Part shown: positions 47,208-53,137 of the stretch, piece by piece
Numbering within the stretch: the stretch's first letter is position 1
Layout of the letters: every line of letters begins with the position of its first letter
Made by a program: the position numbers and the translations under genes
Sequence record: SRR20825019_1354
Strand: one strand, 5' to 3'
Length of the DNA: 64,000 bases
Notes under the pieces: model-generated
Seen by the model: the letters and a program-made list of their open reading frames with translations, nothing else
The model's database searches: none
Told to the model about the DNA's origin: nothing

Positions 47208-48353
47208 ATGCTCACCCTCGATCCTGTCAGCCTGTCCCAGCATCTGATTCGCCGTGAAAGCGTTACGCCCGACAAAGGCGATGCGCTTGATTTTCTCGCC
47301 GGTGCGCTCACGACGCTGGGTTTTAAATGCCACAAACTGACCTTCGAGGAAGAAGGCACTGAGCCAGTTCCCAATCTCTATGCGCGCTTCGGCAGTGAAG
47401 GACCGAACTTCTGTTTCGCAGGTCACACAGATGTTGTGCCCGTAGGTGCCGCAGACCATTGGAGTGTTGCGCCTTTTGCAGCAGAAGTGCGGGACGGCCA
47501 GCTTTTTGGCCGCGGCGCCGCTGATATGAAGTCGGCAATCGCTGCATTTGTAGTAGCGGCTGAGCGTTTTCTGGCTAGCCGGGACACGCCGCCAAATGGC
47601 TCCATCTCGCTCCTGATTACCGGCGACGAGGAGGGCATGGCCATCAACGGCACCCGCAAGGTGCTGGATTGGCTTAACGAGCGCGGTGAAGAGGTCGACA
47701 TGTGCCTTGTGGGTGAACCCACCAACCCCACAGCTATGGGGCAAATGATCAAGATCGGGCGCCGCGGCAGCCTGCACGGCGTTATCACGGTTAAGGGCAC
47801 GCAAGGTCATGTGGCCTATCCGCACTTGGCGAAAAACCCGATCCCGGATCTCGTGAAGGTGCTTGCCACCCTTGAAGGGTCGTTGGATGAAGGCAATGCG
47901 AGCTTCCAGTCCTCCAACCTTGAAATCGTCAATATCGACATCGGCAACGAAAGCCATAACGTGATCCCCGCTGAAGCGAAATCCCGCTTTAACGTGCGTT
48001 TCAACAATGAATTCACGCCGGAAAGCCTGAAGGCGGAGCTAAGCCGACGCATGGACAGCGCGGGCGTGACCTATGAAGTTGATTGGTGGTTATCCGGCGA
48101 CAGTTTCCTCACAGAACGCGGCCCACTTTCGGATGCGGTTTCAAGCGCCGTGGAATCCCGCCTTGGCGTGAAGCCTGAACTGTCGACAACCGGGGGCACT
48201 TCAGATGCCCGCTTCATCAAGGACATGTGCCCCGTGGTGGAATTTGGCCTTGTAGGTGCCACCATGCACAAGGTTGACGAGCATGTGGCCGTTGCGGACA
48301 TTCATGCGCTCACAGACATATATGAAGACGTGCTCAAGCGGTTGATCGGATAA
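47208..48353 (+). CDS. dapE: Succinyl-diaminopimelate desuccinylase
   Basis: [46 protein letters not shown]. Confidence 0.98.
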
Positions 48354-48419
48354 TAGTCCCCAATCCCACCTAAATTAATTCTAGTTTCGCGAGCATATGC
48401 GTGAGGCTATTGTCATCTC

Positions 48420-48606
48420 GTGGTTCACGGAAGAGTACAGGGGTGAAACCCCGCCGTCCCTACGGTTCTGCCCCAAAGGGGTCCCTGTAATGGCGTTGCG
48501 AGTGATCGCGCACCTTTCTTCTTTGAACCCAGCTCCCCTGAGCCCTGCCCAACAATCTCAGGCGCTCAAATAAAAGGGGCCCGCACCTCCCGCGGGCCCC
48601 TTTTTT
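48420..48606 (+). ncRNA. Candidate structured small RNA of unknown family
   Basis: Intergenic; nested stems, a GNRA-capped hairpin and a strong intrinsic terminator; possible -35/-10 (TTCGCG-N16-TATTGT) just upstream. Confidence 0.55.
48572..48606. terminator. Bidirectional intrinsic terminator
   Basis: AAAAGGGGCCCGC-ACCTCCC-GCGGGCCCCTTTTTT. Confidence 0.9.
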
Positions 48607-48625
48607 CAACTCAAGGCTCGGCTTG

Positions 48626-49012
48626 TTATTCGCCGCGTAGACCTGCGATATTGTCTTCCCAGTTGGCACCGTCAAACTCGCCAACAGTAAGCGAGTTTAC
48701 CGTCGCCATATCGATGCAATTTGTGTTGATCGACCAGCCATCAGGGTGGCTACGCGGCACATAAAAGGCCTTAACACCACAGGTGCTGCAAAACAGATGC
48801 CTGGCGGTGCCCGTATTGAAGCGGTAGTCGGTGAGGTTATCCTCGCCAGAGGTAATCCGGAACTCGGCCTTAGTGGCAAAATAGTGCACAAACCCGGTCA
48901 GCTTGCAGATGCTGCATGTGCAGCTTTTGGCTTGCAGGTCGGCCGGGGCGTCCAACTCGAAAGAGACAGCGCCGCAGTGGCAGCCGCCTTTATGGGTAAT
49001 ATTACCTGTCAT
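48626..49012 (-). CDS. GFA/CENP-V family zinc protein
   Basis: GGCHCG.V, CTCSIC, Y.FNT..A.H.FC..CG, PRS.P; true start at ATG 49012. Confidence 0.92.
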   Translation of the reverse strand: MTGNITHKGGCHCGAVSFELDAPADLQAKSCTCSICKLTGFVHYFATKAEFRITSGEDNLTDYRFNTGTARHLFCSTCGVKAFYVPRSHPDGWSINTNCIDMATVNSLTVGEFDGANWEDNIAGLRGE

Positions 49013-52841: not shown

Positions 52842-53041
52842 TTTAATGTGCGTCCCCCACTTGTGCGCATTCTTCAGGGTCATTCTTGATTTTCATGACT
52901 AGCAGGATTGACCGCATGGGGAAAGGCCAAAGCACCATTTTGAAGGCTTGGGAAAATACCGAACACCCGATGACAGGCGGAGCAAGATTTCCCGCGCGTG
53001 TCATGCGAATTTCATGAAGTATTCTGAAAAATAGGATGATG

Positions 53042-53137
53042 GGTGGGAGGGCCTGCACGACCCATGCACAACTCGTTACGGCTGCTTCCTTTCGGACCTG
53101 ACCGGGTTGGCGAGCGGAATGTCCGCCGGCTCTCCCG
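53042..53137 (-). ncRNA. ffs: Signal recognition particle (4.5S) RNA
   Basis: Minus strand contains TCAGGTCCGAAAGGAAGCAGC (helix 8) inside a long hairpin closed by GGGAG/CTCCC; upstream of dnaX. Confidence 0.95.

Follow-up and report, generated by a model that had tools for sequence, protein, structure and literature searches.

The window analysed in this work, a stretch of 64,000 nucleotides, carries a dapE gene (NF009557, 522.8 bits) with its stop at 48353 and, convergent with it, an open reading frame on the minus strand at 48626-49012 that codes for a GFA-family protein (PF04828, E 1.5e-14). Between the two genes, on the plus strand, lies a predicted small RNA transcript of ~187 nt (48420-48606), its start placed from a -10 element and its end from a terminator; the RNA is single-copy in its own genome. 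An initial sequence-only reading had stated that no gene follows on the same strand, and the orientation of the GFA gene bears this out: a same-strand gene 3′ of the element, as would mark a cis-riboswitch or leader, was not found. An imperfect palindromic box, ACCTAAATTAATTCTAGTT (48368-48386, plus strand; half-sites CCTAAA and TCTAG), begins only 14 nt after the dapE stop and may serve as a transcription-factor site; its centre lies ~43 nt before the predicted start. The box runs into a putative plus-strand promoter (48385-48413) made of the -35 hexamer TTTCGC (48385-90), a 17-nt spacer and the -10 hexamer TATTGT (48408-13). No terminator was found between the dapE stop and the RNA, so that read-through from dapE must also cover the latter. 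At its far end, the RNA is closed by a Rho-independent terminator (48572-48606, plus strand) with an A-tract on its 5′ side and a T-tract on its 3′ side, read as GGGGCCCGC-ACCTCCC-GCGGGCCCC-T6 at 48576-48606. Given the A-tract, this terminator likely works in both directions and serves the convergent GFA gene too; a generic promoter/terminator scan missed it, although the fold shows it. Its loop had been described as similar to an anti-Shine-Dalgarno motif and the resemblance is exact: ACCTCCC with its closing base gives CACCUCC, identical to 7 nt of the 16S rRNA 3′ tail, as read directly from the 16S rRNA 3′ end in the window's genome.

The element is narrowly distributed. By blastn, it was detected in 4 of 24 sampled congeners and in none of 16 genomes that represent other families of this order. 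A covariance model (CM R1) built from five sequences gave, in a genus search whose first-look filter scored only part of the candidates, full-length matches in 5 of 32 Kordiimonas genomes including the window's own (E 1e-39 to 2e-44), and a metagenome scan added one further homologue, on contig locus L020; in these five genomes and in L020 the matches span positions 1-182 of the 182 of the model. The element always sits between dapE and the convergent GFA gene, and the dapE proteins of the homologues are 83-94% identical to that of the window. Exact-pattern scans of public genomes, with one genome per species, recovered only one part of the RNA, an invariant core described below, in four records that all belong to Kordiimonas (K. 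gwangyangensis, K. aestuarii and two MAGs). Two near-identical strains were compared with the window, and the listed differences from it fall at 48341-48366 and at 48662, with none inside 48368-48606. The retention of sequence and synteny in 5 of 32 genomes and one metagenome contig upholds the proposal of a structured non-coding RNA: judged by its conservation, the region has the character of a separate gene for a non-coding RNA.

Among sequencing runs on record as RNA, none contains the stretch. Of four runs compared with a 401-nt stretch covering the element, one whose library type was guessed to be RNA (X24) had no match. Another (X18), whose type is not on record and was likewise guessed, yielded a 152-nt contig that corresponds to 48440-48575 at full identity and continues with 16 unmatched A-rich letters after 48575, the rest of the 401-nt stretch being without match; this contig cannot show transcription.

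Folding of the 192-nt plus-strand segment 48415-48606 gave a minimum free energy of -82.8 kcal/mol, compared with -60.9 +/- 4.1 for 200 dinucleotide shuffles (z -5.33), none of which folded as well; the minus strand of the same segment scored z -3.0. Taken by itself, the 5′ domain (48422-48529) reached z -3.03 on the plus strand and -1.77 on the minus strand. All the stems listed in the sequence-only reading are present where it had placed them. The basal stem P1 pairs GGTTCACGGAAGA (48422-48434) with TCTTCTTTGAACC (48517-48529), with one C.U mismatch and one G.U pair. Inside it, P2 joins TACAGGG (48436-48442) to CCCTGTA (48483-89), which directly follows the 3′ strand of P3, GGGGT (48478-82), the two 3′ strands occupying 48478-48489. 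The apical hairpin P4, GCCGT-CCCT-ACGGT, lies at 48453-66, and GCCCC-AAA-GGGGT is found at 48470-82. A side hairpin, TGCGA-GTGA-TCGCG (48497-48510), is a lineage-variable element, and downstream of P1 a further plus-strand hairpin, H5 (48539-48568), is formed by TGAGCCCTG and CAGGCGCTCA around the loop CCCAACAATCT and appears in the minimum free energy fold of all six homologues.

The way in which the inner stems had been assembled, as a cloverleaf of three hairpins closed by TACAGGG/CCCTGTA, did not hold. It had already been suspected that the G run at 48440-43 could pair in two ways, and indeed both TACAGGG/CCCTGTA and GGGGT/ACCCC use it; since this GGGG is needed twice, the cloverleaf cannot form as drawn. 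In addition, in four of the six homologues the GCCCC-loop-GGGG hairpin would have a loop of only 1-2 nt (GCCCCAGGGG, GCCCCAAGGGG). We favour a rod model, P1-P2-P3-P4, in which the apical hairpin is preceded by a CCCC that pairs with the GGGG on the 3′ side of UCUGCCCCA, leaving the UCUGCCCCA loop exposed. This arrangement lies within 0-1.1 kcal/mol of the unconstrained optimum in all six homologues, and in all six it retains a P2 helix (UACAGGG/CCCUGUA, GGGGG/CCCUC, GGGGG/CUCCC or CGGGAG/CUCCCG) between flanks that differ. The inner fold stays a model because the many G and C runs permit alternatives. Among the variable parts, the side hairpin becomes ACGA-CUUG-UCGU in G012, a compensated change, and an 11-nt insertion in the 5′ strand of G013 and G008 pairs with a GUUGCAC segment that forms a local hairpin in G018 and L020.

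A covariation count on the six-sequence alignment, covering P1, P4, H5 and the terminator, supports part of this structure. Pairing is kept in 96% of cells overall, as against 33-53% after a shift of the partners by 1-3 columns. Five pairs, located in P1 and the terminator, changed on both sides, and the covariation score was reached by 1 of 500 shuffles, a control that is generous in that the kinship of the six sequences inflates it. Within the conserved 9-bp part of P1, 92.6% paired across the six sequences, two pairs show double-sided and four single-sided changes, the segment GGUUCA/UGAACC being replaced by GGUUUGCA/UGCAGACC, UGCAGGCC, UGUGAACC or UGUAAAUC. In the terminator, three pairs changed on both sides, with C-G to U-A at two positions. 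P4 and H5 pairs do not vary across the six sequences and hence give no covariation signal; the outer five pairs of H5, being invariant, are uninformative in this respect. The check on homologues that had been suggested at the outset thus found compensatory changes in P1 and in the terminator. In the basal stem, several pairs are G.U and would become A.C on the opposite strand, so that the structure fits the plus strand only.

The sequence is also constrained over and above the structure. The core at 48449-48475 (plus strand), CCCCGCCGUCCCNACGGUUCUGCCCCA in full, follows the pattern CCCCGCCGTCCC[T/A]ACGGTTCTGCCCCA, with 26 of 27 columns invariant in the six sequences, and is more conserved than the dapE-RNA spacer and the 3′ end of dapE. 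It comprises the 5′ strand of P3, the P4 hairpin and the exposed C-rich loop UCUGCCCCA (48467-75). A second C-rich stretch, GCTCCCCTGAGC (48532-48543, plus strand), is identical in all six homologues and its CUCCCC part is predicted to be single-stranded; it is the candidate seed, and the widely shared 3′ module starts with it. In the same alignment, no variation is seen in GCUCCCCUGAGC and the terminator loop, in contrast to the adjacent stems.

The upstream signals are conserved as well. The invariant box ACCTAAATTnnTTCTAGTT precedes all six homologues; at a constant distance from it come TTTCGC, 17 nt and TATTNT. We aligned without gaps 14 promoters, namely those of the six homologues, of dapE-downstream units in six further congeners and of a DUF2336 gene in G000 (the window's genome) and G012: CCTAAA.T..TT.TAG.T is invariant in all 14, the -35/-10 spacing recurs and the TA...T of the -10 is invariant or nearly so. 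In the 32 genus genomes, the box pattern CCTAAAWTNNTTNTAG has 41 matches compared with 8 for the reversed control, a ~5-fold enrichment. The promoter first proposed, TTCGCG-N16-TATTGT, is present and its region conserved, with the adjustment that the -10 sits 8 nt, and not ~7, before the first stem. A generic sigma-70 scan returned no site at its threshold, so that it is conservation that carries the promoter assignment; as the hexamers are weak by the sigma-70 consensus, the putative promoter is probably activator-dependent. Comparison of the box with consensus sites of several regulators gave no convincing match. The DUF2336 gene deserves mention in its own right: at G000:C1 ~3789333-3789960 (minus strand; L054:434-1061), the box and the -35/-10 geometry occur ~155 nt before a 139-aa DUF2336 protein (PF10098, E 4e-10), and this promoter is found in G012 as well (L085). 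The box and geometry common to the sRNA and this gene suggest a shared regulator. Immediately 5′ of the box that belongs to the DUF2336 gene there is a tRNA gene (L054:1197-1268, minus strand; RF00005, 69.7 bits).

To place the element within the genus, we compared 29 dapE-downstream regions. The box occurs in 11 of them and the C-rich 3′ module (CUCCC-GAGCC hairpin-terminator) in 10, the same number as for the motif CUCCC(C/U)GAGC; only five have the 5′ core as in the window, and eight show a variant promoter with the same geometry and CACCCCUG motifs. Since the box and the 3′ module are distributed more widely than the sub-clade-specific 5′ rod, promoter and seed module appear older than the rod. 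What lies between them varies: a different non-coding body in G001, G010 and G023, and an ORF of ~110 aa in G007 and G002, truncated in G014 with a similar N-terminus, while in G044 a related ORF occurs without the box. The ~106-110-aa protein that replaces the sRNA after dapE (L034:1031-1360, L040:1056-1385 and L049:1064-1381, all on the minus strand, in G007, G002 and G044) has conserved parts including FPLGA and SH.A.FWS.GD; it has no Pfam family, matched NCBIfam only below threshold and is absent from the genome of the window (best E 0.63). Derivation of the 5′ domain from this ORF was considered and rejected, blastn finding only the box and CCCTGAGCCC in common. The eight genomes with the variant promoter (G047, G004, G011, G021, G009, G022, G024 and G017) carry a different syntenic unit after dapE; its variant promoter reads ..TTTTAGTTTCTTCTT.TGCGTGTATTTGGTATGAT, and the unit contains CACCCCUG and a long hairpin whose loop starts with a C run. 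It probably represents a further body of one fast-evolving sRNA locus.

A scan of the whole genome for exact complements returned 348 distinct sites of at least 11 nt, about chance level and none outstanding. A 14-nt complement to the core at C1:3991926-39 was discarded as a conserved target, being absent in G012, G018, G013 and G008. Anti-Shine-Dalgarno-like motifs pair with almost any ribosome-binding site, and the motif by itself is not specific. Outside the window, at G000:C1 ~1685900-1686044 on the genome minus strand, we noticed a second, box-driven candidate sRNA (L055 / L075): a perfect palindrome, ACCTAAATTTTTTCTAGGT, located between convergent genes is followed by a ~100-nt unit that closes with a terminator hairpin, whose loop GAUGGGGGU is G-rich, and has no Rfam match. 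Close copies exist in G023, G019, G014, G007, G001, G010, G008, G012, G018, G013 and G002, and G042 and G020 keep its box and terminator hairpin around a different middle. In the window's genome, the predicted duplex of the two RNAs has an energy of -77.9, where 200 shuffles give -58.9 +/- 4.4, and contains a perfect match of 11 bp between the side hairpin (48506-16, UCGCGCACCUU) and the 5′ part of the second candidate (AAGGUGCGCGA, L075). In G012, both sides of the 11-nt match differ and nine pairs remain. A conserved pairing between the two was nonetheless rejected, an 8 x 8 cross-species matrix showing no cognate preference.

We favour, with moderate confidence, the interpretation that a sub-clade of Kordiimonas, a marine genus of Alphaproteobacteria, has at this locus a separate gene whose product is a small regulatory RNA of ~187 nt that acts in trans and is probably transcribed independently. 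Transcription would start near 48420, from a weak -35 and the conserved -10 TATTGT, with the palindromic box just upstream probably binding an activator, and would end at the strong terminator at 48576-48606. According to the comparison of the homologues, the RNA begins with a long irregular 5′ rod, P1-P2-P3-P4, that displays the invariant apical hairpin and the C-rich internal loop UCUGCCCCA. After the rod comes the 3′ module, with single-stranded CUCCCC, a hairpin and a terminator loop that copies 7 nt of the anti-Shine-Dalgarno tail. By analogy with known sRNAs, at least one of the C-rich motifs may pair with G-rich ribosome-binding sites of mRNAs and so alter their translation or stability. 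The 3′ module would represent the older, shared seed part, and the structured 5′ domain a more recent acquisition, which may contribute further targets, stability or the binding of a protein.

Other readings of the same locus have to be weighed against this one. The element might be mainly a structured 3′ UTR of dapE with a bidirectional terminator shared with GFA, its structure serving mRNA stability, in which case an sRNA would be processed from the dapE mRNA or not exist at all. The short distance from the dapE stop to the box, the continuity of the two units up to a terminator with A- and T-tracts, and the position of the 3′ module as the 3′ UTR of a small ORF in G007 and G002 all speak for it. 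Yet the dapE-RNA spacer encloses an invariant box and a fixed -35/-10, an arrangement that also precedes the DUF2336 gene and thus fits a promoter and not a 3′ UTR; the core is better conserved than its surroundings on the dapE side, and dapE in other members of the genus precedes quite different sequence. We therefore regard this explanation as unlikely, while giving it more weight than any other rival. Quite unlikely, in our view, is a structured non-coding RNA with a 5′ rod that serves to bind a small molecule or a protein; base pairing would then not be its main mode of action, and it would work as a sponge, a scaffold or a sensor. A core invariant in 26 of 27 columns on a conserved rod exceeds the constraint needed by a seed of 7-10 nt, and the complement scans yielded no target; on the other side, the 5′ domain resembles no aptamer or protein-binding RNA in Rfam at E up to 10, occurrence in 5 of 32 genomes of one genus is unusually narrow for ligand sensors, and it is the C-rich 3′ module, not the rod, that is widely shared.

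Loss of coding capacity offers another route to such a locus: the RNA could be the decaying remnant of a small-protein mRNA, a ~110-aa ORF having been lost here and the leftover being transcribed without function. Box, ORF and 3′ module do occur together in G007 and G002, the ORF persists without the box in G044 and in truncated form in G014, and the 5′ bodies differ between sub-clades. Against this, the 5′ domain retains no residual similarity to the ORF loci beyond the box and CCCTGAGCCC, and the core stays invariant across homologues with dapE proteins 83-94% identical to that of the window, with pairing kept by compensatory changes. The invariant core and the compensatory pairing indicate selection and we consider a remnant improbable. 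A dual-function RNA, as the sequence-only reading had allowed, has less in its favour than any of these. An open frame of 58 codons does exist at 48397-48573, but its ATG overlaps the predicted promoter spacer, upstream of the predicted start, and occurs in only two of the six homologues, G000 and the 93%-identical G012; beyond a 1-nt indel their frames are no longer alike, that of G012 reaching 96 aa with another C-terminus. The 58-aa sequence has no Pfam match and no Shine-Dalgarno-like sequence was seen before its ATG; an additional peptide is extremely improbable.

A more ambitious version of the small-RNA interpretation, to which we assign a low probability, somewhat under that of the ORF remnant, would make the locus a modular riboregulator. 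The genus-wide box and anti-Shine-Dalgarno seed would be kept while the body is swapped for a ~110-aa ORF or for at least three unrelated structured RNAs; the 5′ rod would be a sensor for a protein or metabolite that gates the seed, trans-acting but riboswitch-like; and a shared regulator would drive also the second sRNA, with its G-rich loop, and the DUF2336 gene. If true, this would amount to a small uncharted sRNA regulon in Kordiimonas; our search of the literature on sRNAs of this genus found none described for Kordiimonadales. With its defined promoter box, seed and terminator, the locus is a clean candidate. It also offers a natural series for the study of sRNA evolution, in which promoter and seed module stay and the body is a small ORF in some genomes and one of the unrelated structured RNAs in others. 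What is more unusual about the locus is its modular evolution, together with the shared box. Its practical value is modest, consisting of better annotation and of a palindromic site as a handle on the regulator, and no long-standing question is touched.

The failure of the sequence-only reading to match the RNA to a known family was confirmed, as an Rfam 15 search gave no gathering-score match in 48386-48606. At gathering thresholds, the whole window contains only the bacterial small SRP RNA, at 53041-53137 on the minus strand (RF00169, 48.3 bits). When E values up to 10 were admitted for 48300-48700, 13 matches appeared, all far below their cut-offs; the best, ar14 (RF02344; 22.4 bits against a gathering score of 58.8, E 0.032), is confined to 48518-48607, on the terminator hairpin with its CCUCCC loop, and ar14 has no match at cut-off anywhere in the genome. 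Membership of the ar14/cuckoo group was rejected on this score and on the absence of the 9-mer CCUCCUCCC from 48420-48606. 6S RNA (RF00013) was also dismissed, having no match in the window and being encoded elsewhere in the genome (C1:1154476-1154636, 52.5 bits), as were tRNA and tmRNA, for which ARAGORN reported 0 genes in 48300-48700.

Comparison with known sRNAs places the RNA in a familiar functional landscape. Enterobacteria have 3′UTR-derived sRNAs such as CpxQ and SdhX, which the locus recalls in that the 3′ module forms, in G007 and G002, the 3′ UTR behind a small ORF and, in the window, stands downstream of dapE with no terminator between; unlike in these sRNAs, a promoter-like box separates dapE from the RNA, which points to independent transcription. 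In Firmicutes, sRNAs of the RsaE/RoxS type carry more than one C-rich motif, with Shine-Dalgarno regions as the proposed pairing partners; the C-rich motifs are the likeness here, in an unrelated phylum, and we claim no homology. Closer in taxonomy are the alphaproteobacterial cuckoo, ar14 and CcsR (RSs0680) RNAs, with which our RNA shares a terminal terminator and C-rich, anti-Shine-Dalgarno-like loop motifs. The pairing of C-rich motifs with G-rich mRNA sites is an established mode of sRNA action, described for cuckoo/ar14 RNAs, which are defined by two to four adjacent simple hairpins, each with CCUCCUCCC, with no multiloop (PMC4615179). In our RNA, by contrast, CCUCCC occurs in no hairpin loop other than that of the terminator, and a long branched rod makes up most of the molecule. 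GsrN, the general-stress sRNA of Caulobacter, is described as pairing with G-rich mRNA sites through an exposed C-rich loop that is its best conserved part, and as being under sigma-EcfG control, usually near ecfG/nepR/phyR (PMC5869019). The window RNA is likewise alphaproteobacterial and has invariant C-rich motifs predicted to be unpaired, but it is flanked by dapE and the GFA gene and preceded by the box and TTTCGC-N17-TATTGT; no EcfG-type promoter was seen upstream. As far as can be read from sequence, the RNA has the general attributes of a trans-encoded sRNA, being intergenic and having a terminator, invariant C-rich stretches predicted to be unpaired and a promoter deduced from conservation. 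It constitutes a new family of an already known kind, confined to some members of a single genus.
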